IMG/VR virus record: IMGVR_UViG_3300013117_000027 | Strand: one strand, 5' to 3' | Length of the DNA stretch: 64,000 nucleotides | Source of the DNA: a virus | In this document: piece by piece, positions 16,287 through 40,871 of the stretch | Layout: each line of letters opens with the position of its first letter | Position numbering within the stretch: position 1 is the stretch's first letter | Translations under genes and position numbers: made by a program | Notes under the pieces: generated by a model | Seen by the model: the letters and a program-made list of their open reading frames with translations, nothing else | Database searches by the model: none | Told to the model about the DNA's origin: nothing

Positions 16287-17627
16287 ATGGCAAGAAAGTT
16301 CTACACAAAGAATTTCTTAGATCCTGCTGAAGATTTACTAAAAAATGTAGAGCTTCGCGGAACAAATGTAGTGGCTGGAGGTCCTATAGCTACAAAAACT
16401 ATAGGTGAGTATTCTCCTATACAACAAGCTAAGGATGTACAAAATCTGGGCGGACAGACTGTAGCAGGTAATATGCAAGACGGTCCTCTACAGAGTCGTG
16501 TTCCTTTTCAAGAAGATATGTTACATACATATAGTGGTACAGATGTTACTGTAGCTATAGTATATAACGAGCATATACTTTTACTTAATAATGTTGAGAC
16601 ATTCGCTTGGTCTATTCATAGAGAGAAGGTTCCTGTGAGAAGATTAGGTGATACTAACGCTAAGAATTATACGTATGGATCCAGGACAATAGCTGGTTCT
16701 ATAGTTTTTGTACAGTTTGACGAGCATCCTTTATACGGTCTTTTTCAGTTCCTTAATGAACGTACCGCTAAGAATACACGATATAGTTCGCCATTATCAG
16801 ACGATATCCCTCCTTTTGATATTATACTATACTTTTCTAACGAAGCTGGTGCTGGATCTATAATGAGATTCTACGCAATAGATATAGCTGATGAAGGTGG
16901 AGTTGTAAGTATCAATGATATATACTCTGAGAATACAATGCAGTGGGTATGTAAAGATATGGATCCTATGATATCTGAAGGCGAAGTAGGTTCTTGGAAA
17001 GCACTTTTATTTCAGAAGCAACTAGAAGGTAAGGTTGTAGATGAACAGTTTACTGCTATGCTTAGATATAGACAGAAACTAGAAAATGATGTATCAAGAC
17101 TCTCTGCGGAGATACAGACTATTGATAAACAAATAATAGAGTTAGGTACAAGAAATACCGACGTGAACGGCATAGGAACTATGGCTCGTACAAATATGGT
17201 TAACTCTGATCCGGGTATCACACAAAGAAGAAACGCACTTACCAAACAAGCTAATATAAAACAAAGTAAGATAGATAGATTGGTAGCAGAGATATCTAAA
17301 GTAGATGCATCTATCGCGGCTTACGAACAATCTAATATGACTTGGGACATGGACGCTAACCTATATGGTATGACTAGGTCGGAAAGGTATATTAAACCGT
17401 ATACCACTAATAATGTCGACGGAACTATAGCTCCAGGATATCAACCTTATGGAGACTATGATGACATTGTTACTAATAAACCTGAAGATGAATCACCTCT
17501 CCAATATCAAGGAGGAGCTAAAGGTAGTAATCCTCCGTACTATAAGAAGGGCGGTTATAAGCCTAGACCTTATGTAGATCAAAGACGTCCACCTCGTAGA
17601 GGGGATCAACGTTATCCATCTCAATAG
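16287..17627 (+). CDS. Tail tube paralog (tube initiator-like) with C-terminal coiled coil
   Basis: Aligns by eye with the tube: YSGTDVTV, WSIHREKVPV, GSRTIAGSIVF, DDIPPFDI, NEAG, DEGGVVSINDIYSE; then a coiled coil and a Pro/Arg/Gly-rich tail. Confidence 0.75.
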   Translation: MARKFYTKNFLDPAEDLLKNVELRGTNVVAGGPIATKTIGEYSPIQQAKDVQNLGGQTVAGNMQDGPLQSRVPFQEDMLHTYSGTDVTVAIVYNEHILLLNNVETFAWSIHREKVPVRRLGDTNAKNYTYGSRTIAGSIVFVQFDEHPLYGLFQFLNERTAKNTRYSSPLSDDIPPFDIILYFSNEAGAGSIMRFYAIDIADEGGVVSINDIYSENTMQWVCKDMDPMISEGEVGSWKALLFQKQLEGKVVDEQFTAMLRYRQKLENDVSRLSAEIQTIDKQIIELGTRNTDVNGIGTMARTNMVNSDPGITQRRNALTKQANIKQSKIDRLVAEISKVDASIAAYEQSNMTWDMDANLYGMTRSERYIKPYTTNNVDGTIAPGYQPYGDYDDIVTNKPEDESPLQYQGGAKGSNPPYYKKGGYKPRPYVDQRRPPRRGDQRYPSQ

Positions 17628-27300: not shown

Positions 27301-30300
27301 AGTATGTAGATGATAAAGATGCTAAAGAAGCACTATATTCTATTAGAAAAAATAAAATACCTACTAGATACGGTAGATATTTAGATATTACACATAATAT
27401 TGCTTGGTTTATAGGATGGTGGTTAGCTGAGGGATCATCTAACATTAGGAATGAAGAAGTGATGTTTTCATTAAATATTAATGAACTACATATAGCTAAA
27501 ACTCTGGGGAAGATATATGCTGAATCGTTCGGTGGAAAGTTTAGAATATATGAGTATCCAGATAGAACAATATGTGTGTTAGTTATAAAGAATAAAGTAT
27601 TAGCATCTTATCTTAAGTCGTTTGGTAACGTTTATACTAAATCTATGAACTCACTAGTTCATCTATCTGATAATAAACTTAGAGCTTTAATCGATGGAAT
27701 AATTCAAGGTGATGGTTGGATAAATCATAAGTTACAGCGAGGAGGATTTAAGAGTGCATCATCTAAACTTGTTAGAGATGTGTGGTTATCGTTATTTAGA
27801 CTTGGTATTCAATCATCTATAACTATAGATTATCTCGAAAAAGCTAATGGCAGATTGTTAAATGGAAAAGTTAGAAAAGATCATGTAAGATCTGAACTTC
27901 AGATGTCTAGAGGTGGTTATACCAATTATAGTGATGTTGTTCTAAATCATAAAAAATCTAAAGATGTCTCAACTGGTAGAGTGTTTACTAGAGATGGAAA
28001 CTTATACATTAAGATATCAAATATATCTTCTCTTGATTGTTCAGGAACAAAGGTATATGATATAGAAGTAGAAGAATCTCATTGTTTCATAGGAAACTAT
28101 TTACTACTTCATAACTCTGAAGCATTAAGAAGGTTTGTTACTAAACCTGATTGGAGAGAATACGGAGTTAATCCTATTCCTAATTTGATGCCTAACTGGC
28201 TTCCTGGAAAGTTCTTAAAGGGTGATCCTTTTTGTGTAACAGCGTCAACTATGATAGAAGTCAATGGTAATAATCTTAAGCGAGCGGAAGATGTTACAAC
28301 AGACGATCTTATAAGAACGCACACTGGTAAACTAGTAAAACCATCTTTTATAAAGAAAAGAAGTATGAAAAATAGTGAATCATTATATAGATTAAAAGTA
28401 TCATCGTTAAGTTCGTTTCCAATAGAAGCATCTGAAGAGCATCCTATATGGACCGAATCTGGGTGGAAACATATTAAGGATATTAATATCGGCGAATATG
28501 TAGGATATCCTATTTCTGATATTAACGATCTTACTACAACTGATAAGATATTAGACTGTTCTAAACTCACACCATATCCATTTGATCATAAATATATATA
28601 TACGTCTGGTTGTGATCAAGAATTCGTAGATATGATAAGTTATATCGAAACTATTCAATCTTCATTCAAAAGAGGAGAACTTAAAAATCTTCTATTTAAG
28701 AATAACTGGGATCGTAGAAAGTTCGAAAGAGCACAAGTTGCAGTGAGAAATAATATAAATAGACGTATTCCTCGCTATATAGATATAAGTTCGCCAGAAT
28801 GGGGATCGCTGATTGGTTATTATTTGTCTGAAGGATGTATAAATATAAAAGATGATAAGTTTATTGGGGTAGGATTCGCTTTTAATATTAATGAGAAAGA
28901 ATATCATGATGAAGTAATGTCGTGTTTAAAATCAGTATTTAATATTCATTCTAAGTTATATCAAGCGAAAGGAACCAATGGTTGTAGTGTAATAGTTAAT
29001 AATTTAGCAATCCCACATATACTATGTGGTTTGTTCGGCAGATACTTTGATGAAAAACATATAGGTTTGCAGCATATTGATTCTATAAAAGAAACAGTTA
29101 GAACCTTGATAAATGGCGATGGATCTTATTATTTTGATAGAGGAAAACCAAGACTATCATTGAAGTTAGAGAATCACCAACTACTATATCAGATAAGACA
29201 AATATTATTAAGTTATGGGTATGTTGGATATATAAATGATAATAATTTAATAATTAGAGGTCAAGCAGCTAAAGAATGCGCTTTGTTTATTAATACAACC
29301 AAATATAAGGACACAAAGGACTCATCTTATACTTGTAGACACACGTATATAAAAGATGGATACGTATGGATGAGGGTATTTGATAACATAGTTATTAAGA
29401 ATGAAAATGTTTATGGTTTTCAAGTGGACACAGATGACTCATTTTGTACAGCTGGGATAGCTACTCATAACACAAAGATAAATAATGGAGAGTTAAGACT
29501 TCCTGGTCCTGCATACGAGAAGACACACGCTGGTGTAGATAAGTCAATGCCCGCTAGAGCGTCTATGTTGGGAAGTCCTACTGAACATAGTATTCAGTAC
29601 TTTACTGGATTGTTACCTCCTCATTTAAAAGAACAGTACGATATTCTTGAGACAGGAACTAGATACCATGAACAAATACAACAATGGTTAGCAGCCGAAA
29701 ATCTTTTAGTACAAGCTGAAGCTCTAGTGTATGACGAGAAGAATAATATCTCTGGTCACGTCGATGCTATCATTAAAGACGGTATGGGTGGTAGAGGTAA
29801 GAAAGCTCTTGAAATTAAAACTATAAGTGAAGAAGGCCTTAAGAGATTAGACGGTCCTAAGTGGCAACACGTTGGACAGATAAACTTTTATATGAACCAG
29901 TTAAAGCTTAAGAAGGGTGGCATCCTATATGTGTCTAGAGACAATCCTGCTAACTTTAAGATGTTTGATGTTAACTATAGTCATAATAGACTAGAGAAAG
30001 ACTTAGAGAAACTTCATAAAGCTAGATCTGTATCTTCTCAAATGCTTGCTAAGAGTATAGAAGGTGACGGGTATGGATTTTCTTATTCTTGGTTAGACAG
30101 ACTTTATATCTTATCTGACGTAGCTCCTACCTCTAAAGAATATAAAGAAGCTAAGTTCATAGTAGAAAGACAGATAAAAGCTGGTATGCTAGATCCTGAT
30201 GGAATAGCTAAGTATCACAGAGCTAAGAAACACAGAGATGCTACTGTTAGAAAGTACGAATTGTATCCTCTAAGATTTAAAGGAAGAGTCATGTCTCCTG

Positions 30301-32684
30301 ATACAGAAGCTAATATAATGTCTATCAATGATAATATAAAAGCTGGAGCAGAGTACAGTCTTCCTGAAAGATGTTTCGATAAAGATACCAATATTGAAAC
30401 TGATAAAGGAATAAAGCGTATATGTGATGTATTGATTGGTGACTATGTGAGAACACATGATAACAAGTGGAAACAAGTATATAACACTTCTAATAGGAAT
30501 GTTGATCATAATGAAAAGGTGTATGAAGTTAAAGTTCAATCAAGAGAAAAAGTTAAAGTTACAGAAGAGCATCCATTCTATGTAATAGAATCTAAACAAT
30601 GTCATAATTGGTCTCATAAAGATTCTGTTTGCGTTCTAAAGAATAATAAGAAATGTAGTAAATGTAAACACACATATTATAAAGAATATGAACATCAATG
30701 GATACCAGTTAAAGACCTAACTAATAACCACTTTGTAGCAACTCCAATATTGGATATAACTGAAAACTCAGAACCTATCGATGTGTATTCATTATTAAAA
30801 GAATATACAAATATAGAAACAGTTGATAATATTATACGATTCTCAAATTATAATGTTAAAGGAAAAAAACAAGGGATTCAGATACCAAGATATATAGAAC
30901 GAACACCAGAACTATATGAGTTATTTGGATGGTATCTTGCTGAAGGATCAAGAAATTCTGCAAAATACCCATATAATGGCTTAAACTTCGCTCTTAATTC
31001 ATCAGAAGAGAATATAGCACAACGAATATGTTACTTATTTAATCGTATCTTTGGAGTTCGTTCTTTCTCTATTAAGAATGTATCAGATAATGGAATAAAT
31101 GTAAGAATATATTCATCTCTGGTTTCGTTAGTGTTTCAGAAGTTATTTAAACATGGCTCAAATAATAAATATATTCCATCACTTATATATAATACATCTG
31201 AAGATAATCTTAAATCTATGATTAACGCTGTATGGTTAGGTGATGGTTGTTATAATAAGAATAGAAAAATAATAAAAGTTATATCATCTTCTTTAATATA
31301 CGATATAAATAACTTGTTATTAACATTAGGATATATGCCGAGTGTTAACTTTATTAAAGGTGGAAAGAAAAAAAAGATATATCGTAATAATAAAGAGTCA
31401 GTTATTAGTGACTGTTGGACTGTTGAGTGGATTGAGAATCCAAAATGTACAAAAGATAGATATATACATGATGATTATTATTATACACGAGTATTATCTA
31501 AAAAAAACATATCAATAGATGAAGTATATAATATCGATGTTATTGATTCTAATTCATATATAGCTAATGGTTTGGCTGTTCATAACAGTATTGGGGCTGC
31601 TTGGGAAAACTTCACTAACACTAATACGTTTCTTGTCAACAAGTTCTTTGCTTACAAAGATCCGTTAGAGCATTACAAACAGTATCAATTGTACGGTCAA
31701 GAATATACACCATGGACAGATCCTTATGGAAGTTTTATAGCTCCTCAAACTAGAACTATGATGGCTCAAGAGAATCCTATAAGTGCTGCAATTAATTGGG
31801 GTTTTGGACTTCCTTATCTATTAGGTGGAAGAGCTGGAGGTATATATGGAGCAGTTGCAGGAGGTGCATATGGTGCTATTCATGGTATGGTAAGAAAAGC
31901 TTCTGGAACAATTTATACACCAGAACATATGCAGAAAGAGCGCCAGATAAATGACTATTTCGATCAGTTAAAATTCGACAGGAACATGAGAATGGCGTCT
32001 TTATCAGAAGGTCTTACTAGGAAAGAATATAGTAATCAAGCAAGATCTACAATGACAAGTATACTATCTCAAGGTGGTAAGTATACAGATATGTTTAGAG
32101 CTGCTCAGTCTAGCGAGAAACCATATCTAGCTGCATGGTTAGATGAAACTAATCCAGAACGTAGAGATGAGATAGCTAGATTCTTACCTGAGAAGATGGG
32201 TCATGCAATGAGAACATTTTGGCATTCAACTGATAACAAGATGTCTACAAGAGATTTCTTAGAATCTACTAGTGCTGACTTGGCTAACGGAAGAAAGACC
32301 ACGCCTTATAGTATGAATATGTTAGATCCTACTGTAGAACTAGAGGATATAAAACTTAAAACTATACAAAATCAAGGTCTTAATCAACACGATTTTGGTC
32401 TTGGATGGCAAGAACAAATGCTTAGGGTACAGAATCAGATAGATGATATGCAGATAGCTGAGATATCAGCCAGACCTTTAGAACCTGTAAATGTTAATAC
32501 AGCTGGTATGAAAGCAGCTATATACGAGATGCTTAATCAGATGGGACTTAGTGGACGTGTACAATTATATGTTAATAATCATAGTACTAATAATAACAAA
32601 GTAACGTTGACTGTTCAACGAGACAGATTACAAACTTTAAAGCGAAGTTTTAATTCAAGGAATAGGTGGATGAGAAATGTCTAA
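21369..32684 (+). CDS. Giant virion protein at the tape-measure position; four inteins and a PD-(D/E)xK nuclease domain; about 2100 aa after splicing
   Basis: Follows the chaperones; Gly/Ala-rich hydrophobic segments; four C...HN|S/T intein units; GTRYHEQ...SGHVD...EIKT...HVGQINFY nuclease motifs. Confidence 0.8.
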   Translation: MAYYDPRTSDERYYDPHRNTSGSLTSSVTSGIGSFAKNAVGYMVMYSAMTFAGGVTSKFIGNIAKTQALKGTGTIAKRISALKAPTLGKIAKQFTPVRHAATRVRMATRPLRQAYKKRARLLERVNRKDSLLGDKARFTSAFRNGKTLAATAGNLLYKHGIKGSVAGYAWDSVAGNLPMYGLEEKAAWNVPGHVMNYAKYMKDNIITFSAFGAIGPIYKGARGTIGLGLRNVMEKNTAFRDKILGNLAKITRPRYSSVQAPTKATNSIFKEDVNNFNTANSYNVFNKAIDATKAAGKTFYSAFIENARTMFAEAGRHGSHNIHKPTKGSVTSFLSRFKKNITDHWQMHREQARYGRTVGVLESEGMRTMKTFEHLGNIESTAGQALEQTTAKNTNMNLINSIRDDQLKPKNFLAQVLSLRPTVTGDVMNTDYISRVGSNFAKYFPKSKAHVVDQAMSNVRMGNDYYSRGKFNVDLSMLSPLHQLKRVTNKIMGLNLSFMIGLPPVGRDLSLGNITGWNSLMGGSVRSTPFNKDTTGLGLIVKSGGVTDTRGNLVQRGTPRTLQQLAADTLGENMSDNLNVSLINGKFYAADGVNLTNLNSMNTVLKYSHPEIFGKAGEAKLSNIKEWIYHSSREPGSIMEANKWLTDANRNTASNPFQWAMKKLDWGVPEAIPNAWRKLKEILTPGRIRHAGKNLNHSQDLQAEMWENLLSKRIDYDKLKAHIPIMRDSMEHTGQEVGMLMQSPTIYQEIAHNSRYLQANQMDSAIFHSDEKFMTKLFNMQESALDQNDVFWKLMKNPDSKAIYETALWNPKKAKDAIPFKRQGRLSDYNSMNVLKTQFVTEGLNVDYSMTNMHPFVDAADTLFKQGHISGTQSTAMKMYGFVSTLFADGNLDNFAKGTPTPQDKTALGAVINTFKKRHNIELEHAMDYISRTEFRTPSRDGKLFQTLKETILDPRLLPSVREQVYDKSPFFALSVGDNGSGKFQTGIKKALDIGAERLTNLIKMTTGLRRDPFKYGDGVRGAARFISTRGGQLAAAGLAYKALDALIADNPMLDETALDQGITGFIADNVAKTHLLSSRIANMTGIAGVGRYLDGLMPGFVSSAPGAIVGAALNWRRGITETAVGAVKGAISNRVLSPLMPDMTKTYDQLEAEYSGKEEVPIIEGRMWLMGTTPWQGKRVIGWRPNWYQRMHSRWKASDSLYGSELRKLLHEPIFPVGISVGDIIDPYYMERKHYFSRPYAECIYPQAFVQIHNGIKMVKDIVKGDKIYDVDGVIYNVKDVTSRNVKNNENIHSVNLVGIHEPLIISEDHKQPIIKDIKCKYKSASNKSCVGEHKGICKKCKSKRTSFEIDWVETKDINVGDFLVKPIVRPVYNGDVIQLSKYINFRNYVVEKDICYIIDKNNKKTKTNAQNTFRIDDKIAYYFGLYLAEGWINFGRNKPHTVNTVHNMKEYDYVKTYITHMCSVFKCSYSEEKHDNYVTFHIHNVLLAELIFGLFNKASDKKCIHFTKEIDRKIVAGIIFGDGHYDISNVVLTNTSLNIHGYVTTVLENDMIPICIKKHCNNGKQSYRTSFPYSYLDEYRMKYDSNYKNKCIQTPKGRSNRIYFRNGSILRRVLSNDIIEYKDKLYDIVTDSPKQSFTLLSHCIHNSADFGADIPLGLGPIVSATLGQVIKPKKQMHREFMEGDDVIGDSDFAANPPPTYKEMRGMMKTGTWNSNSIGSRSSFMGTARYGGTKLYGQRMADQVLDNFESAMGLVGFAGHSIRQGLTSDAAIIPTVETAGRIASQSRSYYDMNLGGLGVYCLPYDGKVLTPNGLTNIGEINSGDIVYDQCYSKKKVTNTFSRICDDDERMYTFTLNAGKTQIDCTWNHPLAIYRKETCHDGKVKPCIPNSKKHCTICTKQDKEVYWDWVQAQDVKVGDYAVMPLPKSDTSVETVDLSAYSDYSFSDKYIYTRAGNGYITALEMLEHNPSLTRKQLREYVDDKDAKEALYSIRKNKIPTRYGRYLDITHNIAWFIGWWLAEGSSNIRNEEVMFSLNINELHIAKTLGKIYAESFGGKFRIYEYPDRTICVLVIKNKVLASYLKSFGNVYTKSMNSLVHLSDNKLRALIDGIIQGDGWINHKLQRGGFKSASSKLVRDVWLSLFRLGIQSSITIDYLEKANGRLLNGKVRKDHVRSELQMSRGGYTNYSDVVLNHKKSKDVSTGRVFTRDGNLYIKISNISSLDCSGTKVYDIEVEESHCFIGNYLLLHNSEALRRFVTKPDWREYGVNPIPNLMPNWLPGKFLKGDPFCVTASTMIEVNGNNLKRAEDVTTDDLIRTHTGKLVKPSFIKKRSMKNSESLYRLKVSSLSSFPIEASEEHPIWTESGWKHIKDINIGEYVGYPISDINDLTTTDKILDCSKLTPYPFDHKYIYTSGCDQEFVDMISYIETIQSSFKRGELKNLLFKNNWDRRKFERAQVAVRNNINRRIPRYIDISSPEWGSLIGYYLSEGCINIKDDKFIGVGFAFNINEKEYHDEVMSCLKSVFNIHSKLYQAKGTNGCSVIVNNLAIPHILCGLFGRYFDEKHIGLQHIDSIKETVRTLINGDGSYYFDRGKPRLSLKLENHQLLYQIRQILLSYGYVGYINDNNLIIRGQAAKECALFINTTKYKDTKDSSYTCRHTYIKDGYVWMRVFDNIVIKNENVYGFQVDTDDSFCTAGIATHNTKINNGELRLPGPAYEKTHAGVDKSMPARASMLGSPTEHSIQYFTGLLPPHLKEQYDILETGTRYHEQIQQWLAAENLLVQAEALVYDEKNNISGHVDAIIKDGMGGRGKKALEIKTISEEGLKRLDGPKWQHVGQINFYMNQLKLKKGGILYVSRDNPANFKMFDVNYSHNRLEKDLEKLHKARSVSSQMLAKSIEGDGYGFSYSWLDRLYILSDVAPTSKEYKEAKFIVERQIKAGMLDPDGIAKYHRAKKHRDATVRKYELYPLRFKGRVMSPDTEANIMSINDNIKAGAEYSLPERCFDKDTNIETDKGIKRICDVLIGDYVRTHDNKWKQVYNTSNRNVDHNEKVYEVKVQSREKVKVTEEHPFYVIESKQCHNWSHKDSVCVLKNNKKCSKCKHTYYKEYEHQWIPVKDLTNNHFVATPILDITENSEPIDVYSLLKEYTNIETVDNIIRFSNYNVKGKKQGIQIPRYIERTPELYELFGWYLAEGSRNSAKYPYNGLNFALNSSEENIAQRICYLFNRIFGVRSFSIKNVSDNGINVRIYSSLVSLVFQKLFKHGSNNKYIPSLIYNTSEDNLKSMINAVWLGDGCYNKNRKIIKVISSSLIYDINNLLLTLGYMPSVNFIKGGKKKKIYRNNKESVISDCWTVEWIENPKCTKDRYIHDDYYYTRVLSKKNISIDEVYNIDVIDSNSYIANGLAVHNSIGAAWENFTNTNTFLVNKFFAYKDPLEHYKQYQLYGQEYTPWTDPYGSFIAPQTRTMMAQENPISAAINWGFGLPYLLGGRAGGIYGAVAGGAYGAIHGMVRKASGTIYTPEHMQKERQINDYFDQLKFDRNMRMASLSEGLTRKEYSNQARSTMTSILSQGGKYTDMFRAAQSSEKPYLAAWLDETNPERRDEIARFLPEKMGHAMRTFWHSTDNKMSTRDFLESTSADLANGRKTTPYSMNMLDPTVELEDIKLKTIQNQGLNQHDFGLGWQEQMLRVQNQIDDMQIAEISARPLEPVNVNTAGMKAAIYEMLNQMGLSGRVQLYVNNHSTNNNKVTLTVQRDRLQTLKRSFNSRNRWMRNV
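25098..26312 (+). mobile_element. Intein 1 with LAGLIDADG homing endonuclease (405 aa)
   Basis: RPYAE|CIYPQAFV...SEDHK...FGLYLAEG...AGIIFGDG...LYDIVT...CIHN|SADF. Confidence 0.92.
26772..28115 (+). mobile_element. Intein 2 with LAGLIDADG homing endonuclease (448 aa)
   Basis: GLGVY|CLPYDGKV...TWNHP...IGWWLAEG...DGIIQGDG...VYDIEVEESHCF...LLHN|SEAL. Confidence 0.95.
28233..29471 (+). mobile_element. Intein 3 with LAGLIDADG homing endonuclease (413 aa)
   Basis: KGDPF|CVTASTMI...SEEHP...IGYYLSEG...TLINGDG...VYGFQVDTDDSF...ATHN|TKIN. Confidence 0.95.
30372..31586 (+). mobile_element. Intein 4 with LAGLIDADG homing endonuclease (405 aa)
   Basis: SLPER|CFDKDTNI...TEEHPF...FGWYLAEG...AVWLGDG...VYNIDV...AVHN|SIGA. 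Confidence 0.95.
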
Positions 32685-35600
32685 CTATGATAAAGATAAA
32701 CCAAAACCTAACTGGTATAATAGAGTAGCTGTAGGATCTATCGGTCTTGCTAGTATTGGTGTAGTAGCTTATAAGATGGGCGGTCCTACAGGAAGACTAT
32801 TAGATAATATAAGAGATGAACTTGTAGAGAAAGATGCAGCAGATAAGTATCTTAAGTGGTCAAGGAAAAGTGTTGCTCCTGAAGATGTTAAAGATCTACA
32901 GGCTAAAATTGTTACTTCATCAAGAGGCGATACTATGCTAGCAGGCGGACCTCCTACAGATGAAATGATGAACGAAGCTATAGATAAAGAGTTTAAGAGA
33001 CACCAGATAACAGATGATCAACTGTTTAATAAAGCTGCTAGAATGGAAGCTGATATAGAAGCAGCGTTTAATCAGGATATCCATGGTCATGCTACTGATA
33101 AGTTAATGAAGTTAAAAGAGTTTAGACGTTACCATAAAGCTCCAACAGATGCTGAGATGAGAAGAGATATGGTAGTTTCTAAACTAAAACATCAGACCAT
33201 AACTGATTATCATAGAACATCTTATGTTGGCATGGAAGGAGTGCCAGATATAGATCTTACAGATCCTGATATCGTTAGAGATCCTTTTGCTAAGTCTGAA
33301 GAGATAGATAAGTTACATCAACATTATATGAAGAACGATAAGGTGTATGCTAGAAAATATAACAAAGCATTACATGCTTCTTTAAAAGAGATTAAAATTT
33401 CTACTGCAACATCTACTATAGCTAATCCTACTCTACAGAAGAATGGGATATTTGGTACTAATAGTGTACCTAAGTCTATGGGTTCAGTAAAGAATATGTG
33501 GTCTAGTATTCTCGATATAGAGGGCGCAAATGCTTATACGTTAGAACCTGATAAAAGTGTTATGTTACATATAACTGGTCAGGCTGGATTTTCGTCTGAT
33601 GAGATAGTAGCTAAACCTACGTCTTTTGAACTAAAGATGGATAACTCTACAAGGATAAAGTATCAAAAGTATATGCCTCAGTTAAAGAGGATTCAAGGAA
33701 GACTAGAAGAGATTCAGACTCAACTTCACGGTAGGCGCGGTTCTCACGTCATATCTGATATACAAATATCTGATCAAGTTTACTCAGTAGGATCTAATAG
33801 GCAAGTATCTTACGCTGTGGTCGAATGGGATGTTAACGTTGGTACCACGAAGAAGCACGTTACAATACCTATACCTATGGCTGAGAATAACACTGTTCCT
33901 AGTATTAAAGGTATTAATGGAAGACTACGAGCTAACGTTAATTATGTGTCTGCTAATCCATTCGGTCTTGGTTCAAGACAGGTTGTTAATACTACACAAA
34001 TGGCTTTCGAAGAATTACATAATTCACTTACAAGTTCTATGATGAATGAGATGGAAGTAGATACCTCTAAGTTTCAACGTAGAATAGTGGATCGTATTAG
34101 TAACAGAATAGAAAATGGAGTTAAACCTCTTGCTAATGAAACTAGAGATTTCTTTAGTGCTCACCAGGTGAAAGTAATAACTAATGATACTATTATGAAA
34201 AGGAAGGGTGAATCAAGAAAAGGTTTTTTTAAACAGTTAAGAAGTGGCGGTAAGAGTTTAAGAAACATGCAGTTAATAAAGAATAATCCTCATGAATACG
34301 TTACGATGTTCCTCGATATAGAGACTATTAACTTAATGACAAATTCTCCACAGTTACAAAAAGGCGATCCTTTTACAGGAATATGGCAATATGGTATTGT
34401 AGAGCAAGACATGGGTACTGGTAATATAAGAAGAGTTAAACAGATAGCTTCTGATCATGTTCTTAATGAACAGTATATGTTAATAGATAAACATATTAAA
34501 GATGGTACTTTAAAGAATGCATTAAAAGACAATGGTAATACAGGTAAGAACCTTAGATCTATGGCAGAGTATGCACAGAGAACAGTAGGTGGTTCAGATG
34601 ATCTAGACGCTTTACTAAGAATGAGAGAGATGATAAAAGCTCAAGCTAATGTTGATAATAGATACGTTAATTCTTTGTACAAAAATCCTATTAGAACATC
34701 TAATGATTTCGCGAGAGTGATAGACAGTGAGTTAAGAAATGCACAGATGAGAGCTGCTAAAGAGGGTAAGAAACTTATAATAGGTACTGCTAATGGAGAT
34801 TTTGACTTAAGTATCATTGGTAATCTATTAGGAGATTCAGCGTATGCTTCTAAGTTTGATCACCTTGATGTACAGACTATGACAAGAGCTATGACATTAG
34901 GGTTGTACGACCAACCTGCTATGTCTGCTGAGAATCTAATGCCGTGGTATGCATCTAAAACTGGAAGACCAGGTCTTTCTATGTTGTCTTTATCTAAAGA
35001 TCCTGTAGGAACTGTTAAAGCTATAAGTACTGGAGTAACACCTACTGCTCATGTAGGTACCAGGCGTGCTCTAGATATGATGGTAAACGGAGAATTATCT
35101 AAGTATGGTAAGTGGGCTATAGCGGCTGGGCACTCATCTTCTGTATACGATAATGTTAATGCCCTAGGTATAATGCATATGCAAATGGAGTTCTTTGAGA
35201 AAGATGGGTTTCAGACAGCTAGAAATATAGAAGATTTTGTACAGAACGCATCTGGTTATGATGTTAATAAAAACCTTAAATCTCACTTAGAATTAGAGTT
35301 AGGAAGACTTCCTGGACAACAACAATGGTTTTCTTATGGACTAATGTCGTCTAATGCTGCTTCTAAGAAGATAGGAAGTATGGTACATATAGCTCATATG
35401 TGGCCTGGACTATCTCTTAATCCTGGTAACAAAGATTTACACCAGTTCGCTAGACACGACATGGTAAGGAAAGATACTATTAAGAATCCTCATCGTGAGT
35501 ACATGATGAAGAATCCTTTGAGATCTAATGTTGTTACTAAGGTAGAACACTGGATGACAAGAGTGTCAGACTTTGACATGAGGTACTATGCTAATGAGTT

Positions 35601-38600
35601 ACAGTTTAATATGGCTTACGCTGTTAATATGACAGGTAGTAAGAACGGTCTTTTCAAGACAGCGGCTGATACATTAGACTTTACAGTTCATTCTACTACA
35701 AGTGTAAGGGCAGGGGATTTGCCTGCTGACTCTAAACTTGCTAACGAGTTAACAAACATATACTCTAAAATTACAAAGAAAGTTAAAGACTTGTCTAAGA
35801 CTTTACACGGTGATCCTAATCACACTATCAGTGGCGAGATGTGGAAAGAAGCTTGTTCTCTTGTCTTAGCTAAGGAAGGTGTTACATTGCCTACTTTTAC
35901 AAGAGATGCTAATGTTCCAATGAAGGTTTCTATAGGTGGTGAAGATCATGTATTTAACTCTCAACTAAACGGACGAGTAACATCGTTACGCGTTGATGGA
36001 CGTCCCGGTGAGAAAGGAACACCGGGATTTATAGCGGATATAATGTTTGAGGCATCAGGTAACGATCTTAATAATGCTGCAGTTAATCATATGGGAACTA
36101 AGAGTATTGTCACAAGACTTAATGTTAAATCTGCCGAACTAGCATATGGTAAGTTTAATGTACTTCCCGATAACTATGCTATTATGAACTTTGATTTCTT
36201 AGACAAGAAATATTGGGGATCAATGAAAGAGATGATGATTAGGAAAGGTTTGGGTGTGTCTATGTATAACGCTAAACATGCAGCTACAGCAGAGCAACGA
36301 GCTTATGCTGTTAAATCTTACAAGAGAATAGCTAACTTAATAAGAGGTTCTTTTCCTGTTACACAGAATAAAGATGGTAGTGTTCGTTTTGGACCAAGAA
36401 ATCTTTCAGAAGATCCTAAAGAAATAATGAAAAAAATGTCAGCTATACGTATGAACGACATAGTTTACGAACTAGGAGCCGTAGGACATGAAGCGTCTTG
36501 GACTCGTAAGACGATGGAATCTTACTATAATCTTAGAGGTGGCGGTGATATGTGGAGAGGGCGAGATAAGATTAGAAATGAAGTGGCTGATCTTTTATTA
36601 GGTCTAGATAGTGCTGCTAGTAAGATAGAAAAAAGAACTCAACAAGTAATGACTACTGCTGATCAACGTACTCTTATCAAATTATTAGATCCTTTAGGAA
36701 TGATAGAAGATAATCTGAGACAACGAGATGAACTAGTTGGTGGAAGTATAGAATCGCATTATAAGACATTGACTAGAGATAAACAAGAGCAACTTATAAA
36801 AGGAGCACGTATAACTCCTTTCTTACAAGAGTTACCAGATTTACAAGGAGGTGGTAGTTTCTTAGGATTCTATGGCGGGTATCAACCTTCAGCTATTTAT
36901 AATAATAACGCTGGAAGAGATATAAAGTATATGCATGACGTGAAGTGGCAAAAGTCTTACTTTGAACAAACACATGTAAAAGACTCGCTATTCTCTACAA
37001 GAACAAGAAGACTTTTAAGATCCTCGATGGGTTATAGGAGACCTGGTTCAGGCGGTAGTAAACAGTTAGATGTAGCTAAGAAGTTCTTTAGACTGTCAGA
37101 GGCTATACAGAACAAAGGGGTTGCTGACTTAGCATCTGAACATATGTTAACCTTAGATAATATAGATGCTATTATTCACAGAAGAACTACAATGAAAGCT
37201 TTTGAAAGAGACTTAGAATCTCTGGCCGATAATAAGAATACACACGAGATAGCAGCTATTAGTGATTCTCTAGATGATATGCTTAAAGATGTTAACAAGG
37301 CAGAGTCTATTAATAAGGACGCAGTTGCTCATTCAATATTCCAGAAGACTACTGGTGAAAGACGAGAGATATTAGAAACTGTTGCTAAGAGAAATAACTA
37401 TCTACATCAAACAGAGATACAAGAATGGGCTGACCTTGCTGTTAAGAAGAAAGATATATTCTTCCTTCCTAGTAAATTTAAACATAAGGATAAGATATAC
37501 GGTAACGAAAGACTTACTATAACATTAGAGGATGCTGCTGAAGCTTTTAACAAAAAAGTTTTACCTACTGAACCATTAGATTCAAACGCCTTTCTTTCTA
37601 TGTTACGACTAGTCCAAAAAGGTGAGAAGTATAAGACATTGTCTAAAACTAATCAACAACTATTCGATATTGTCGATCTAGGTAATGGGAAACATGAGAT
37701 ACACTTAGGAGGTTTTCTAATGCCAGCACATGGACACGTGGGTAATATTGCCGATATGATGGATTCACAACAATACGGTATAGGTACACAGACTACTAAG
37801 ATGTCTTTTGACATGATGGAAGGATATTATATGTATGCCAAAGATATGATAGAAGGTAGAACTGATAATCTAGGTGCTCATTCAACAAGACTTTTCACTG
37901 ATCAGATGAAGATGTATACACATGCTCTTTCAATGGACAAAATGTCTGCTATGTTTAAGTCTACACAAACTGGAGTTATGCAAGGATTTCAAGCTGTTTA
38001 TAAGTCGGTAGATACACATATAGCTTCAGCTCATCAGGTAATTCAAGATATTGCATCAGACGCTCCTTATATAAAAAAGTGGTTTGCTACTAATAAACAA
38101 TGGACAAAAAAAGATGTCACAGGGGTACTTAACAGATTTACTCAGATGAAACTTAATACTATGACTGCTATGACAAGTACGTTATTCGATGAGAAACAAG
38201 TTGCAGTAAATTTTACTACAGGCAAACAAGAAATGATAGCTGACATGATTCAGAAAGGTACTAAAGAGTTTCAAGAGATGGTAGCAGAAATGAAACTAGG
38301 AAGAAGAACATTACCTGGAGGAGTTGCAGTAAGATTTCCAATGCTGCCTAATGGTGTTAATCCTGGATTCGAAGGTCCTCTGTTTGCTATGCCAGATGAA
38401 ATAGGTACAGGTTTACTAGGCATGAGTAATAATCATATGTACATGGTAGAACCTATCGGAGAACTCGTGAAAGCTGATAATGATGTAGACTTAATGGCGG
38501 TAGTAATGAAGTCTTTTAGTACTATAGAAGATATAGATAGAGCGTCTAGTGAATCTAGGTATAGTCTTAATAAGTTAATGTCGAGACTACAAGGTGGAGG

Positions 38601-39999
38601 ATATCAGAAAGCTTACAACGACGCTAACTATGTATTAAGTACTTATTACGATAAAGGTGAACGTATGGCGCGAGTGTCTAAGTTAGATTCATCTGGTAAA
38701 TTCGTAGTCAATAAAGTGAGGTACGACGCATTAGATTTTGTATCTAACGCTCAAGGTATGGTGCGAGAAACTGGTAAGTTAGGGGGAGCACTAGCTCCTT
38801 TATCTAGTACAGAATTTGTAGCAAGATCTAACCTCCATACATCTACTAAGGCACTAGGTGACCATATAGCAACATCTGCTATGGGAGGATTCTCTAAGAA
38901 TCAGATTGGTCTATGGACTAATACTATACAAAAGAAAGTTCATGAACTATTTATGGCGAACGGTGCTATGGCTACAAAGTCTACTGTCTTAATGGACATG
39001 ATAGGCGATCTTAACCATGGACTAGCTTCTATAGCACAGAGTCCTATTAAAGCTACAAAGCATGGCGATCTAGAATCAGTGATGGATATGACAAAGATGT
39101 TATCATGGATAACAAATCCTACTAAGTCTAGAGTAGAAGATTATAATATGGCTTATAGTACATGGGTAGATCAGTTCCCTGTAGAGAAGCAGGAAGCTAT
39201 GGGAGATATCTTTAGAGTATGGACTAAGAGATCTTCAGTGTTTAGTCTGTTAGATAAATATGATCCAGAAGCAGCTAAGTTTGCTCAACGAGAACAAGGT
39301 ATAATGATGGGTAAACAAGGCACTAACTTTATGGACTACGTATCTTACAAGATGATAGGAGAAAGTAAAGTTCAAGCTAAGTTAGATAATGCGTGGAGAA
39401 TGGCTTACGAGAATGTTATGAATCTTAACGATAAGATGCGTGGCGGTATTAATCCTAAAGATGCACAACAAGCATGGGCTACTAAGTTACAACGTGAACT
39501 AGCAGAGACTTCTTTAGATAAGAGATTTAATGAAGTATTTGGTGATGCTATTACTAAGGCTAAATTTGGAATAAAACGCGGAGGCAAAGGAGCAGCAATC
39601 GCCGGACTAGCATTCCTTGCGCTTAACATGTTTAGACCTAATCAGATGTCTAGTAGTTCTAATCCATTAGATGCCTTTGTAGATCTAGGAATAGATATAC
39701 ATGGTAATAATTCTACTAATGAATTACAGTTAGGAAAAGAAGTACCATTAGATCTTGTTAACGCATCGTTTTCTAAAAAAGCTTTCATAGAAATGCAGAA
39801 TAATAATAGTGCAACTATTAAGAGAGCACAAGGTAATATGGGTATGGACGCTATTAAATCTAGGTACATGACTCCTACAATGGTTCACTCACAGTTTAAT
39901 AGTGGAGGAAGTACTACATATAGTAATCTAACCTCTAACATAGGTATCTTCGGTTCTGGTGAGACGCAAAGAAGAGCACGAAGAATTGGCAGTATATAG
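32677..39999 (+). CDS. Giant protein: putative single-chain two-barrel RNA polymerase-like enzyme fused to a DEDDh exonuclease domain
   Basis: FLDIET / ANGDFD / HSSSVYD exonuclease motifs; beta-like HMGTKSIV...YAIMN...GSMKE; beta'-like VRFP...KADNDVDLMAV. ORF is certain; function is from motif reading. Confidence 0.6.
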   Translation: MSNYDKDKPKPNWYNRVAVGSIGLASIGVVAYKMGGPTGRLLDNIRDELVEKDAADKYLKWSRKSVAPEDVKDLQAKIVTSSRGDTMLAGGPPTDEMMNEAIDKEFKRHQITDDQLFNKAARMEADIEAAFNQDIHGHATDKLMKLKEFRRYHKAPTDAEMRRDMVVSKLKHQTITDYHRTSYVGMEGVPDIDLTDPDIVRDPFAKSEEIDKLHQHYMKNDKVYARKYNKALHASLKEIKISTATSTIANPTLQKNGIFGTNSVPKSMGSVKNMWSSILDIEGANAYTLEPDKSVMLHITGQAGFSSDEIVAKPTSFELKMDNSTRIKYQKYMPQLKRIQGRLEEIQTQLHGRRGSHVISDIQISDQVYSVGSNRQVSYAVVEWDVNVGTTKKHVTIPIPMAENNTVPSIKGINGRLRANVNYVSANPFGLGSRQVVNTTQMAFEELHNSLTSSMMNEMEVDTSKFQRRIVDRISNRIENGVKPLANETRDFFSAHQVKVITNDTIMKRKGESRKGFFKQLRSGGKSLRNMQLIKNNPHEYVTMFLDIETINLMTNSPQLQKGDPFTGIWQYGIVEQDMGTGNIRRVKQIASDHVLNEQYMLIDKHIKDGTLKNALKDNGNTGKNLRSMAEYAQRTVGGSDDLDALLRMREMIKAQANVDNRYVNSLYKNPIRTSNDFARVIDSELRNAQMRAAKEGKKLIIGTANGDFDLSIIGNLLGDSAYASKFDHLDVQTMTRAMTLGLYDQPAMSAENLMPWYASKTGRPGLSMLSLSKDPVGTVKAISTGVTPTAHVGTRRALDMMVNGELSKYGKWAIAAGHSSSVYDNVNALGIMHMQMEFFEKDGFQTARNIEDFVQNASGYDVNKNLKSHLELELGRLPGQQQWFSYGLMSSNAASKKIGSMVHIAHMWPGLSLNPGNKDLHQFARHDMVRKDTIKNPHREYMMKNPLRSNVVTKVEHWMTRVSDFDMRYYANELQFNMAYAVNMTGSKNGLFKTAADTLDFTVHSTTSVRAGDLPADSKLANELTNIYSKITKKVKDLSKTLHGDPNHTISGEMWKEACSLVLAKEGVTLPTFTRDANVPMKVSIGGEDHVFNSQLNGRVTSLRVDGRPGEKGTPGFIADIMFEASGNDLNNAAVNHMGTKSIVTRLNVKSAELAYGKFNVLPDNYAIMNFDFLDKKYWGSMKEMMIRKGLGVSMYNAKHAATAEQRAYAVKSYKRIANLIRGSFPVTQNKDGSVRFGPRNLSEDPKEIMKKMSAIRMNDIVYELGAVGHEASWTRKTMESYYNLRGGGDMWRGRDKIRNEVADLLLGLDSAASKIEKRTQQVMTTADQRTLIKLLDPLGMIEDNLRQRDELVGGSIESHYKTLTRDKQEQLIKGARITPFLQELPDLQGGGSFLGFYGGYQPSAIYNNNAGRDIKYMHDVKWQKSYFEQTHVKDSLFSTRTRRLLRSSMGYRRPGSGGSKQLDVAKKFFRLSEAIQNKGVADLASEHMLTLDNIDAIIHRRTTMKAFERDLESLADNKNTHEIAAISDSLDDMLKDVNKAESINKDAVAHSIFQKTTGERREILETVAKRNNYLHQTEIQEWADLAVKKKDIFFLPSKFKHKDKIYGNERLTITLEDAAEAFNKKVLPTEPLDSNAFLSMLRLVQKGEKYKTLSKTNQQLFDIVDLGNGKHEIHLGGFLMPAHGHVGNIADMMDSQQYGIGTQTTKMSFDMMEGYYMYAKDMIEGRTDNLGAHSTRLFTDQMKMYTHALSMDKMSAMFKSTQTGVMQGFQAVYKSVDTHIASAHQVIQDIASDAPYIKKWFATNKQWTKKDVTGVLNRFTQMKLNTMTAMTSTLFDEKQVAVNFTTGKQEMIADMIQKGTKEFQEMVAEMKLGRRTLPGGVAVRFPMLPNGVNPGFEGPLFAMPDEIGTGLLGMSNNHMYMVEPIGELVKADNDVDLMAVVMKSFSTIEDIDRASSESRYSLNKLMSRLQGGGYQKAYNDANYVLSTYYDKGERMARVSKLDSSGKFVVNKVRYDALDFVSNAQGMVRETGKLGGALAPLSSTEFVARSNLHTSTKALGDHIATSAMGGFSKNQIGLWTNTIQKKVHELFMANGAMATKSTVLMDMIGDLNHGLASIAQSPIKATKHGDLESVMDMTKMLSWITNPTKSRVEDYNMAYSTWVDQFPVEKQEAMGDIFRVWTKRSSVFSLLDKYDPEAAKFAQREQGIMMGKQGTNFMDYVSYKMIGESKVQAKLDNAWRMAYENVMNLNDKMRGGINPKDAQQAWATKLQRELAETSLDKRFNEVFGDAITKAKFGIKRGGKGAAIAGLAFLALNMFRPNQMSSSSNPLDAFVDLGIDIHGNNSTNELQLGKEVPLDLVNASFSKKAFIEMQNNNSATIKRAQGNMGMDAIKSRYMTPTMVHSQFNSGGSTTYSNLTSNIGIFGSGETQRRARRIGSI

Positions 40000-40202: not shown

Positions 40203-40871
40203 ATGAAAATGTTCAAACAATGCTCTAAGTGTGGAGAGGTAAAAGAGTTAAGTGAGTTTAATAAAAAGAAAGATGGTAAGTTTGGTGTCCAAACTATGTG
40301 TAGAATGTGTAGAAGAGATTATAGAAAAAGGAACTATAATAAGGAAAAGAACGCATCACAATGTCGTAACTACAGACTTAATAATATTGATAAGTTTAAG
40401 TCTTATGATAAACTTTATTATATAAATAATAAGTCTTTGTGTAATAAAAGATCAAAAGAATACTATGAATCTAATAAAGATAGGTTAAAACTGATGCAAA
40501 AAAATAATAGATCTCATATAAATGCTAGCAGGAAACAACGTTATATCAATGATACTGGATACAGAATAGAATGTAATATAAGAAGTAGAATCTTTGGATC
40601 ATTGAATGGATTAAATAAATTCACATCTACAAGAGAACTAATAGGTTGTACAATAGATGAACTCAAAACGCATCTTCAGTCTACAGCTATTGTTAATGGT
40701 TACAAAGACTTCGATATTAATAGCTACTTAGGACAAGATTATCATATAGATCATGTACGTCCATGTTCATCTTTTAATCTTGAAGACGAAGAAGAACAAC
40801 AAAAGTGTTTCCATTATACTAATCTTCAGATTCTTTCTGCTGAAGAAAACCTTAAAAAAAGTAATAAGTAG
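40203..40871 (+). CDS. HNH homing endonuclease with N-terminal zinc finger
   Basis: CSKC...CRMC at the N-terminus; YHIDHVRPC...CFHYTNLQILSAEENLKKSNK HNH motif at the C-terminus; Lys/Asn-rich. Confidence 0.9.
   Translation: MKMFKQCSKCGEVKELSEFNKKKDGKFGVQTMCRMCRRDYRKRNYNKEKNASQCRNYRLNNIDKFKSYDKLYYINNKSLCNKRSKEYYESNKDRLKLMQKNNRSHINASRKQRYINDTGYRIECNIRSRIFGSLNGLNKFTSTRELIGCTIDELKTHLQSTAIVNGYKDFDINSYLGQDYHIDHVRPCSSFNLEDEEEQQKCFHYTNLQILSAEENLKKSNK

Follow-up and report, generated by a model that had tools for sequence, protein, structure and literature searches.

The prevailing view is that RNA polymerases (RNAPs) of the cellular, two-barrel type edit RNA solely within the polymerase active site, with the help of Gre/TFIIS-type factors. 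No two-barrel RNAP is known to rely on a separate DEDD proofreader, the RNA being cleaved in the active site of the polymerase itself. The exonuclease domains of PolA, PolB, and PolC are 3'-5' nucleases tied to palm-type polymerases. Coronavirus nsp14 ExoN is a DEDDh domain that edits RNA products, but it serves, in trans, the nsp12 RdRp, an enzyme of another fold. Archaeal PolD (DP1-DP2) is a two-barrel polymerase with a dedicated exonuclease, but this exonuclease, DP1, is an Mre11-type phosphodiesterase and not DnaQ-like. The known DEDD domains that are joined to a polymerase, on one chain or within one holoenzyme, all trim the 3' end made by that polymerase. Two phages provide the closest described settings for the protein considered here. 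Thermus phage P23-45 gp96 is a virion two-barrel RNAP fused to the tape measure (PMC10770324), and Bacillus phage 0305phi8-36 encodes a separate RdRP/YonO-like RNAP, gp99 (PMC7824862).

The window analysed here is a 64,000-nucleotide stretch of DNA (IMG/VR record IMGVR_UViG_3300013117_000027) from an uncultured, contractile-tailed phage. Within its block of tail genes, an intact reading frame at 32677-39999 (this and all other coordinates refer to the plus strand) encodes a giant protein of 2440 aa (P0001). With the tail chaperones on one side and the baseplate hub on the other, the gene is in the tape-measure slot, and it corresponds in position to the gene for 0305phi8-36 gp146 (2537 aa), a protein recorded as detected in the virion by mass spectrometry. 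Upstream is an even larger ORF (21369-32684; 3771 aa), which overlaps the start of the 2440-aa ORF by 8 nt and is the positional counterpart of 0305phi8-36 gp145; its counterparts in relatives have 2030-2280 aa, compared with 3771 here. Downstream, an ORF for 2467 aa with an endolysin-like domain (40880-48283) takes the place of gp147. Paralogy among the three giant proteins was rejected, given that blastp finds no match between them. Because the 2440-aa protein occupies this slot, in a contractile tail like that of 0305phi8-36, it would be expected to be packaged in the virion and delivered into the cell along with the DNA.

Among 1.84 billion representative proteins there are nine full-length relatives of 2396-2491 aa, and further homologues occur in metagenome and IMG/VR loci. 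The family comprises at least 23 full-length members, all of them uncultured, with identities of about 20-40%. When 50,697 phage records were searched by tblastn, no match was obtained either with the whole 2440-aa protein or with the first 1200 aa of the upstream giant.

A DEDDh (DnaQ-like) 3'-5' exonuclease domain is predicted at about aa 535-850 (34279-35226). An earlier, sequence-only reading had noticed four motifs of the DnaQ superfamily in their expected order, and all four are present in the 2440-aa frame at the places it gave, including its position of 34315 for the aspartate of ExoI. ExoI, TMFLDIETI (aa 543-551; 34303-34329), lies on strand 1 and supplies D547 (34315-34317) and E549 (34321-34323); the D-x-E pair is found in 23 of 23 proteins. 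ExoII, IGTANGDFDL (aa 702-711; 34780-34809), is an N-G-x-F-D motif whose D710 (34804-34806) is present in every member and whose N706 is present in 22 of the 23. The third motif, HLDVQT (aa 729-734; 34861-34878), contributes the "LDV" of strand 5, which occupies the "iDT/LDV" position of RNase T/Orn-type enzymes, and its D731 (34867-34869) is again found in 23/23. ExoIII, GHSSSVYD (aa 818-825; 35128-35151), contains H819 (35131-35133) and D825 (35149-35151), both invariant. Since the histidine never varies, a DEDDy type was rejected.

The conservation of these residues stands out against the rest of the protein. Only 15 of the 2440 residues are invariant among the 23 full-length proteins; six of these are D547, E549, D710, D731, H819, and D825, and three more are the DxDxD triad D1934/D1936/D1938 discussed below. 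In an alignment of the domain alone (A2; 16 sequences with 13-36% identity to the window protein, constructed without the homologues P0002, P0003, and P0006-P0009), the same six positions are the sole invariant columns. The spacing within ExoIII is H-x5-D in the 2440-aa protein and in 17 of the 23 members overall, while the other six have the canonical H-x4-D (e.g., AH-DALSD). A composite DEDDh pattern, which was devised post hoc, has a single match in the actual sequence (aa 546) and is found in 2 of 2000 residue shuffles. All 23 proteins carry both the exonuclease motifs and DxDxD on one chain, and a more distant protein, L037, has compact DEDDh-like motifs together with GDHDGD. Alignment to the L037 domain by hhalign is not significant, and a Pfam search of the L037 segment gives nothing.

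Structure prediction leads to the same superfamily. An AlphaFold2 model of aa 520-880 (pLDDT 77.6, pTM 0.78) orders its strands and places its motifs as DnaQ-like enzymes typically do; a single-sequence model of aa 521-900 gave no confident fold (pLDDT 32). When compared with 48,161 PDB representatives by VIA-align, the top 50 matches are all DnaQ-like exonucleases, with Z scores of 9-12. Examples are Pol III epsilon (Z 11.8, 167 of 174 residues at 3.0 A) and RNase T (Z 11.5), and coverage reaches 155 of 166 residues for ExoX and 160 of 164 for Cas2-DEDDh. A second VIA-align comparison placed 426 of 1000 chains at Z>=8, with a best Z of 12.3. Over the aligned portion, 155-190 residues on references of 164-225, the predicted fold is alpha/beta and RNase H-like, with five strands in its sheet. 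In Foldseek searches of the PDB and BFVD, the top matches are nearly all exonucleases or the exonuclease domains of DNA polymerases. The fold neighbours include stand-alone nucleases, such as Orn/REXO2, the diDNases, Cap18, and the TREX1-like Plex9.1, and the nearest named clusters in the ESM Atlas, which serve as a lead only, are all exonuclease families (score 0.77-0.78). Because the Z scores are tied, the matches do not assign the domain to one DEDDh subfamily or, by extension, a preference for RNA or DNA.

The model also indicates where the conserved residues would lie. D547 and E549 (model residues 28 and 30) fall inside a strand spanning model residues 22-32, and, if strand 1 is taken to be ungapped, the starts of the structural alignments place them in register with D12/E14 of epsilon, D23/E25 of RNase T, D6/E8 of ExoX, and D11/E13 of ISG20. 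By hhalign with the core profile, D547/E549 fall on D12/E14 of Orn. In the hhalign alignments, D710 falls on epsilon D103, RNase T D125, and Orn D112, D731 on the LDV of Orn and the TDS of epsilon, and H819/D825 on RNase T H181/D186 and epsilon H162/D167, at P values that are not significant for the single E. coli enzymes. Judged from these registers and from the placement on secondary structure, D547, E549, D710, H819, and D825 would come together as one two-metal site. In this predicted active site, strand 1 would supply D547 and E549, D710 would sit where the helix that follows strand 4 begins, and H819 and D825 would be at the ExoIII helix; the additional invariant residue D731 would lie on strand 5. 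The RNase H-like fold that the sequence-only reading called for is predicted with good confidence and matches DnaQ-superfamily exonucleases only, and its assignment of the motifs to that superfamily is upheld by the invariance of the DEDDh residues across 16 domains and 23 full-length proteins.

Two insertions separate the motifs, as had also been noticed from the sequence. The first is helical, about 95 residues between strands 3 and 4 (aa 603-695; 34483-34761; model helices 84-176), and distant members vary in its first part or lack it. The second, of about 85 residues, follows strand 5 in the AlphaFold2 model and precedes ExoIII. These long insertions hide the domain from sequence searches. 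Pfam, PHROGs, and NCBIfam give no match to either the whole 2440-aa protein or the exonuclease domain, and phmmer and profile hmmsearch against PDB sequences yield nothing relevant. In the profile search against RNase_T/DnaQ that the sequence-only reading had proposed as a check, the window protein has no Pfam match, and the best scores among 16 members (RNase_H_2, E 2e-4; RNase_T, PF00929, E 0.032) are below the gathering threshold. Aligned by hhalign with E. coli RNase T, Orn, or DnaQ singly, the domain profile gives P values of 0.011-0.44, which are not significant even with the insertions removed. A word-indexed search with aa 500-900 returned only the 2440-aa protein itself, and PF00929 finds no match in the window's own genome. 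As no Pfam threshold is reached, the domain is assigned to the superfamily by fold and motifs, outside any Pfam family.

The same chain appears to carry a polymerase-type module downstream. The motif block R1886-x-P1888 ... K-A-D1934-x-D1936-x-D1938 (38332-38496) includes an invariant A-D-x-D-x-D at aa 1933-1938, and P1888 and the three aspartates are invariant. By hhalign, the block aligns with E. coli beta' aa 443-471 (NADFDGD) over 29 columns with a P of 0.0013, and distant members have ADFDGD or GDFDGD at this position. A profile of aa 1560-2200 detects nothing in the PDB or Pfam, and the ESM Atlas is uninformative for the DxDxD region. These features are consistent, at the motif level, with a beta/beta'-like two-barrel polymerase module, and the exonuclease domain would lie some 600-1300 residues upstream of it. 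The proposal that an exonuclease sits N-terminal to a putative RNAP thus holds at the level of motifs, through R-x-P and the DxDxD aligned to beta'. A combination of DEDDh with RNA-polymerase-like motifs on one chain was not found in the literature searched for characterised phage or cellular RNAPs, in keeping with the earlier impression that this architecture is unfamiliar among characterised phage RNAPs.

Together, the conservation and the predicted fold argue with high confidence that aa ~535-850 constitute a real two-metal DEDDh 3'-5' exonuclease, and very probably an active one. The alternative, an inactive structural relic or a chance resemblance of motifs, could appeal to the absence of a sequence-profile match, the unusual H-x5-D spacing, and the large insertions, but it is very improbable, since the five catalytic residues are invariant at 13-36% identity where nearly all else varies, the fold match is unanimous, and the composite motif is so rare among shuffled sequences; chance motifs were rejected on residue conservation and fold.

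What the nuclease would do is less firmly indicated. Beyond the motifs, their invariance, the fold, and the synteny, which the analysis shows directly, we infer that the domain is catalytically active and that the protein is carried into the cell, as well as what the nuclease acts on and how it would be linked to the polymerase module. The explanation that probably accounts best for the locus is a DEDDh exonuclease that resides on a putative polymerase chain and is delivered by the virion. As to its role, the leading but tentative candidate is that the nuclease shortens, from the 3' end, the strand that its own polymerase module has synthesised. Such trimming would amount to proofreading or to the rescue of backtracked or stalled complexes.

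Of the other possibilities, the one with most in its favour, although still unlikely, is that the domain is an active exonuclease independent of the polymerase, an injected early effector that would act on host nucleic acids, on defence-related 3'-OH oligonucleotides, or on DNA ends. The gene lies in a tail-module block of giant proteins that are likely to be ejected, and fold neighbours such as Orn/REXO2, the diDNases, Cap18, and Plex9.1 act on short oligonucleotides or defence signals. In addition, 0305phi8-36 gp146 has by-eye candidates for an ExoI-like motif (at aa 1222), LDT, and H-x4-D, lacks DxDxD, and coexists with a two-barrel RNAP encoded by a separate gene, gp99. If these candidate motifs are real, the nuclease would go with the slot rather than with the polymerase. 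However, the gp146 candidates receive no support from hhalign, which is not significant against gp146 or gp99; Pfam detects nothing in the gp146 segment, and the 2440-aa protein has no detectable sequence similarity to gp146. Also against independence, the nuclease and DxDxD are conserved together on one chain in every full-length member and in L037. Furthermore, no stand-alone relatives of the domain were found in the homologue search of the 1.84 billion representative proteins or, with profile A2, among proteins of 186-643 aa, a search limited by its word index.

A second possibility is that the two-barrel module is a PolD-like DNA polymerase and the DEDDh domain its classical proofreader, brought in by the virion, for instance, to mend or finish the incoming genome. 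Where a DEDD domain is known to be fused to a characterised polymerase on one chain (PolA, PolB, and PolC), the enzyme is a DNA polymerase, and an exonuclease N-terminal to the polymerase core is the arrangement seen in PolA and PolB. PolD demonstrates DNA synthesis by a two-barrel fold (PMC7281927). Nevertheless, this interpretation is improbable. Complete or nearly complete relatives have a family B DNA polymerase of their own and contain no recognisable T7-like, beta'-type, or QDE-1/YonO-type RNAP elsewhere, which leaves transcription as the unfilled role. The ADFDGD and GDFDGD of distant members resemble beta', and the known virion enzyme of this kind, the tape-measure-fused two-barrel P23-45 gp96, is an RNAP (PMC10770324).

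There is a similarly small chance that the nuclease processes the ends of the phage genome during ejection or shortly afterwards, by 3' resection that might, for example, lay bare single-stranded template or promoter DNA for the polymerase or ready the ends for joining. Judging by its slot, the protein would probably accompany the leading DNA end in the tail lumen or at the point of entry; one relative genome has direct terminal repeats, and ExoI, ExoX, and RNase T, which are fold neighbours, trim DNA 3' overhangs. However, once the 3'-ended strand is resected, the single strand that remains has a 5' end, and a polymerase could read it only towards the terminus.

Trimming of the product of its own polymerase module remains the preferred role, and the warning in the sequence-only reading against assuming either an RNA or a DNA substrate is still valid. 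It is possible, though doubtful, that this is the first two-barrel polymerase to have a dedicated DEDDh editing nuclease built into its own chain. It could then be a transcription enzyme in which a separate active site proofreads or rescues RNA 3' ends, or else a PolD-like DNA polymerase of bacterial viruses that proofreads and is delivered by the virion. The retention of a DnaQ-type nuclease beside a polymerase motif, despite domain identities of only 13-36%, may point to a new form of transcript quality control or to a new class of injected nuclease. The family would also widen the small set of phages known to have a polymerase in the tape-measure slot, for which P23-45 is the sole case in the literature found. 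Since its members are invisible to Pfam, PHROGs, and NCBIfam, they are annotated as hypothetical or tape-measure proteins. At about 330 aa, and with catalytic residues predicted at five positions, the exonuclease domain itself is a concrete unit that is easy to assay.

Compared with known DEDDh exonucleases, the predicted domain has the fold of Pol III epsilon, RNase T, ExoX, ExoI, oligoribonuclease, Cas2-DEDDh, and the N-terminal exonuclease of DinG, matching nearly the whole of each reference domain at Z 11-12. It shares their motif order, D-x-E, N-x2-3-F-D, (I/L)D, and H-x4/5-D, and by register the same catalytic residues, apparently of the histidine and not the tyrosine type. It differs from them in having no significant sequence similarity, in its two insertions (the canonical enzymes lack the helical one at aa 603-695), in its mostly H-x5-D spacing, and in being embedded in a 2440-aa tail-module protein.

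The comparison with P23-45 gp96 concerns the whole chain. Both are giant proteins at the tape-measure position with a DxDxD polymerase module, for both delivery with the DNA is proposed, and in both the similarity to other RNAPs is confined to the surroundings of DxDxD. However, in gp96 the RNAP forms the N-terminal part of a siphovirus tape measure of 5002 aa, whereas the 2440-aa myovirus protein has its polymerase motif at about aa 1880-1940 with the nuclease ahead of it. There is no sequence match between the two, and the gp96 paper (PMC10770324) makes no mention of an exonuclease or nuclease. In 0305phi8-36, the likeness lies in the gene order, which is the same: sheath, tube, tube paralogue, gp142-like, two chaperones, three giants, and baseplate, with lysin domains in the third giant, as in the downstream giant here. 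Finally, none of PolA/PolB/PolC, nsp14-nsp12, or PolD combines a two-barrel polymerase and a DEDDh domain in one chain, but in each of them, as is proposed for the 2440-aa protein, a 3'-5' nuclease is physically tied to a nucleotide polymerase.

The 2440-residue protein that carries the proposed exonuclease is the product of a single, intact ORF (32677-39999, + strand), whose first 8 nt are shared with the giant ORF that precedes it (21369-32684, +, 3771 aa). All four DEDDh motifs claimed by the sequence-only reading were located in its translation at the positions claimed: TMFLDIETI (aa 543; 34303-34329, with the D547 codon starting at 34315), IGTANGDFDL (aa 702; 34780-34809), HLDVQT (aa 729; 34861-34878), and GHSSSVYD (aa 818; 35128-35151), all on the + strand. 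A composite DEDDh pattern, written post hoc and weak alone, matches the protein once and was found in 2 of 2000 shuffles. The protein has only one cysteine.

Neither the whole protein nor its exonuclease segment matched Pfam, PHROGs, or NCBIfam, and the whole protein found no match in a PDB sequence search or, by tblastn, in 50,697 phage records. When residues 481 to 1000 were run by HMMER against the full set of 1.84 billion representative proteins, just nine relatives were returned, each of 2396 to 2491 residues and all aligned at the same position; scans of IMG/VR and of JGI metagenomes contributed another 37 loci, from which came 13 more full-length homologues, more distant ones. Ten full-length representatives share 50 invariant columns of about 2440, among them D547, E549, N706, F709, D710, D731, H819, and D825, as well as A1933, D1934, D1936, and D1938. 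When 23 full-length proteins are compared, 15 invariant residues are left of 2440 (Y332, D547, E549, D710, D731, H819, D825, P1888, D1934, D1936, D1938, N2082, K2128, L2352, and A2363). The D, E, D, H, and D picked earlier from one sequence are all in this set, an agreement that, judged from the alignment, cannot be chance. Within the domain itself, an alignment of 16 sequences with 13-36% identity to that of the window leaves only D547, E549, D710, D731, H819, and D825 invariant. Selection evidently maintains two sites in these aligned proteins, the DEDDh set and the DxDxD triad.

The surroundings of the acidic residues also resemble those of canonical enzymes. T550 comes directly after D-x-E, N706 stands before F-D in 22 of the 23 proteins, and D731 belongs to an (I/L)D motif that occupies the "iDT/LDV" position. 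ExoIII has the textbook form, AH-DALSD, in several homologues; in the protein of the window and 16 others, the motif is longer by one residue (H-x5-D).

Structure prediction from the single sequence gave a pLDDT of 32; prediction of residues 520 to 880 with the 16-sequence alignment gave a pLDDT of 77.6 and a pTM of 0.78. In this model, strand 1 (residues 541 to 551) bears D547 and E549 and is followed by strands 2 and 3 (568 to 578 and 584 to 591), a helical insertion (603 to 695), strand 4 (699 to 704), a helix that starts at residue 709 and bears D710, and strand 5 (728 to 731), which ends with D731. Further helices and a low-confidence loop (787 to 797) lead to the ExoIII helix, which runs from residue 822, with H819 just ahead of it and D825 within it. 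A Foldseek search of the PDB with the model found nothing at E<=0.001; nearly all of the top 50 listed matches, at probabilities of 0.9-0.99, are DEDDh or DnaQ-like nucleases, including Maelstrom, REXO2/Orn, RNase T, ExoI, ERI1, and a DnaQ domain. When VIA-align was run against 48,161 representative chains, the best 50 listed were all DnaQ-like exonuclease domains (Z 8.9-12.0), such as Pol III epsilon (Z 11.8; 167 of 174 residues aligned, rmsd 3.0), RNase T (Z 11.5; 184 of 204), Cas2-DEDDh (Z 11.0; 160 of 164), and ExoX (Z 10.7; 155 of 166). A second structural comparison reached a top Z of 12.3, with Z>=8 in 426 of 1000 chains. Matches in a viral structure library were exonucleases and DNA-polymerase exonuclease domains, and the nearest named clusters in the ESM Atlas were all exonuclease families, with scores (0.77-0.78) that serve as a lead only. 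Thus, the RNase H-like fold expected by the sequence-only reading is indeed predicted, as a DnaQ-type fold, while the suggested profile search was unsuccessful, the domain missing the Pfam RNase_T threshold. By predicted fold and motifs the domain is a member of the DEDDh superfamily; because the Z scores are tied and the RNase_T threshold was missed, we assign it to no subfamily.

The alignments also indicate which residues would form the active site. In the VIA-align ranges, model residue 23 pairs with epsilon residue 7, ExoX residue 1, and ISG20 residue 6, and model residue 14 pairs with RNase T residue 9. If strand 1 is ungapped, these ranges place D547/E549 (model residues 28 and 30) on D12/E14 of epsilon, D23/E25 of RNase T, and D6/E8 of ExoX and D11/E13 of ISG20, which we take to be the catalytic residues of the latter two; residue numbers of the three E. 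coli reference proteins were confirmed on their sequences. Alignment of the domain with single E. coli enzymes by hhalign, although not significant in any case (P 0.011-0.44), gave the same register: D547/E549 fall on Orn D12/E14; D710 on epsilon D103, RNase T D125, and Orn D112; D731 on the LDV of Orn; and H819/D825 on RNase T H181/D186 and epsilon H162/D167. These registers suggest that D, E, D, H, and D form one site.

The proposed fusion to an RNAP is borne out at the level of motifs. R1886-x-P1888, followed after about 45 residues by K-A-D-x-D-x-D, matches the E. coli beta' segment ending NADFDGDQMAVH (29 columns, P 0.0013), and the invariant DxDxD lies in ADFDGD and GDFDGD surroundings in distant homologues. 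The DEDDh set and DxDxD occur together on one chain in every member. Profile searches with residues 1560 to 2200 found no match in PDB or Pfam, an outcome that the paper on Thermus phage P23-45 describes as usual for such RNAPs (PMC10770324). The best-conserved stretch is the C-terminal 160 residues (mean column conservation 0.41-0.59), which include a Gly/Ala-rich hydrophobic segment common even to a distant protein of 2219 residues (L037:3489-10145, +). This protein, undetected by the family HMMs and without a match in Pfam or PDB, follows the same plan at the motif level: compact, canonical-looking DEDDh motifs within about 190 residues (AIDTETT at aa 527, HNRDFD, IIDT, and H-x4-D), GDHDGD at aa 1658, and then the family's C-terminal YLGLNFFRPNQ segment. 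Its motifs suggest that it is probably a deeper branch lacking the insertions.

The gene lies in a structural module with portal (2275-4338), major head protein (6989-8326), tail sheath (12572-15478), and two tube-like paralogues (15525-16238 and 16287-17627, +), followed by two small genes in chaperone position, three giant ORFs, of which the last has an endolysin-like domain, and baseplate genes. The triplet is kept in all related loci, where the upstream giant protein has 2030-2280 residues versus 3771 in the window; by blastp it is not similar to the other two giant proteins. A 222-residue HNH/endonuclease VII-like ORF (40203-40871, +; phrog_1035, E 5e-17) separates the second and third giant genes. 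Since the counterpart gap in related loci is only about 170-210 nt, this ORF has the look of a mobile insertion peculiar to this genome.

This order is exactly that of Bacillus phage 0305phi8-36: sheath, tube, tube paralogue, gp142, two chaperonins, gp145 (1930 aa), gp146 (2537 aa, "hypothetical tape measure protein"), gp147 (1903 aa, endolysin), gpV-like, and baseplate. The tube-like paralogues match phrog_9206, whose label, "major head protein", is probably inherited from a mislabel, because their counterparts gp140 and gp141 bear that product name together with the notes "tail tube" and "tail tube paralog". According to the 0305phi8-36 record, mass spectrometry detected gp146 in virions, and by position only this supports a virion location for the 2440-residue protein.

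By two-metal hydrolysis, the predicted site would take nucleotides off a free 3'-OH end, and the protein would enter the cell with the DNA. We tentatively favor the idea that the nuclease edits the product of its own polymerase in cis, by proofreading or by rescue of backtracked complexes, because the family conserves just these two sites and, to our knowledge, all DEDD domains so far linked to a polymerase edit that polymerase's product. The main alternative, somewhat less likely, is that the nuclease is injected and acts independently of the polymerase, in host takeover or counter-defense. This alternative would be favored if gp146 (L048:623-8236), which lacks DxDxD, had a DEDDh-like domain with large insertions in the corresponding slot of its genome, as may be the case: YLDIETTGL (aa 1222), LDT (1487), and HLARAD (1685) are seen there by eye, but hhalign and Pfam gave these motifs no support. 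A proofreading DNA polymerase is improbable; relatives with complete or almost complete genomes (230 kb, bearing terminal repeats, and 219 kb) carry a gene for a family B DNA polymerase, and searches of both found no PolA, T7-like RNAP, QDE-1/YonO-like RdRP family, or clear beta' match. In another genome, a related 147-kb phage record, a 228-residue ORF contains a weak, sub-cut-off RNA_pol_Rpb1_2 match (G003:C1:86591-86842; E 7e-4, 16 bits), which could be a split-RNAP fragment or noise. Processing of genome ends by the nuclease is just as improbable. An inactive relic is very improbable indeed; the DnaQ-type fold bears every catalytic residue of the histidine type, and purifying selection on this set is strong.

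A loose analogy only is offered by a recent preprint, which shows that nucleus-forming phages have an RNase H-fold nuclease that aids transcription through its action on RNA:DNA hybrids (10.64898/2026.10.01.755736). Phage 0305phi8-36 has a separate RNAP of the RdRP family (QDE-1/YonO-like), gp99 (L051:8026-11682, -; PMC7824862), adjoining the right terminal repeat, whereas the relatives of the window lack such a gene. A search of full-text literature for two-barrel or virion RNAPs with an exonuclease, and for tape measure proteins with DEDDh, found no such fusion described. The closest functional precedent is P23-45 gp96, a virion two-barrel RNAP fused to a tape measure, whose paper mentions no exonuclease or nuclease (PMC10770324). 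Compared with these systems, the 2440-residue protein has a nuclease fold that is already known, but its architecture and its setting are new.
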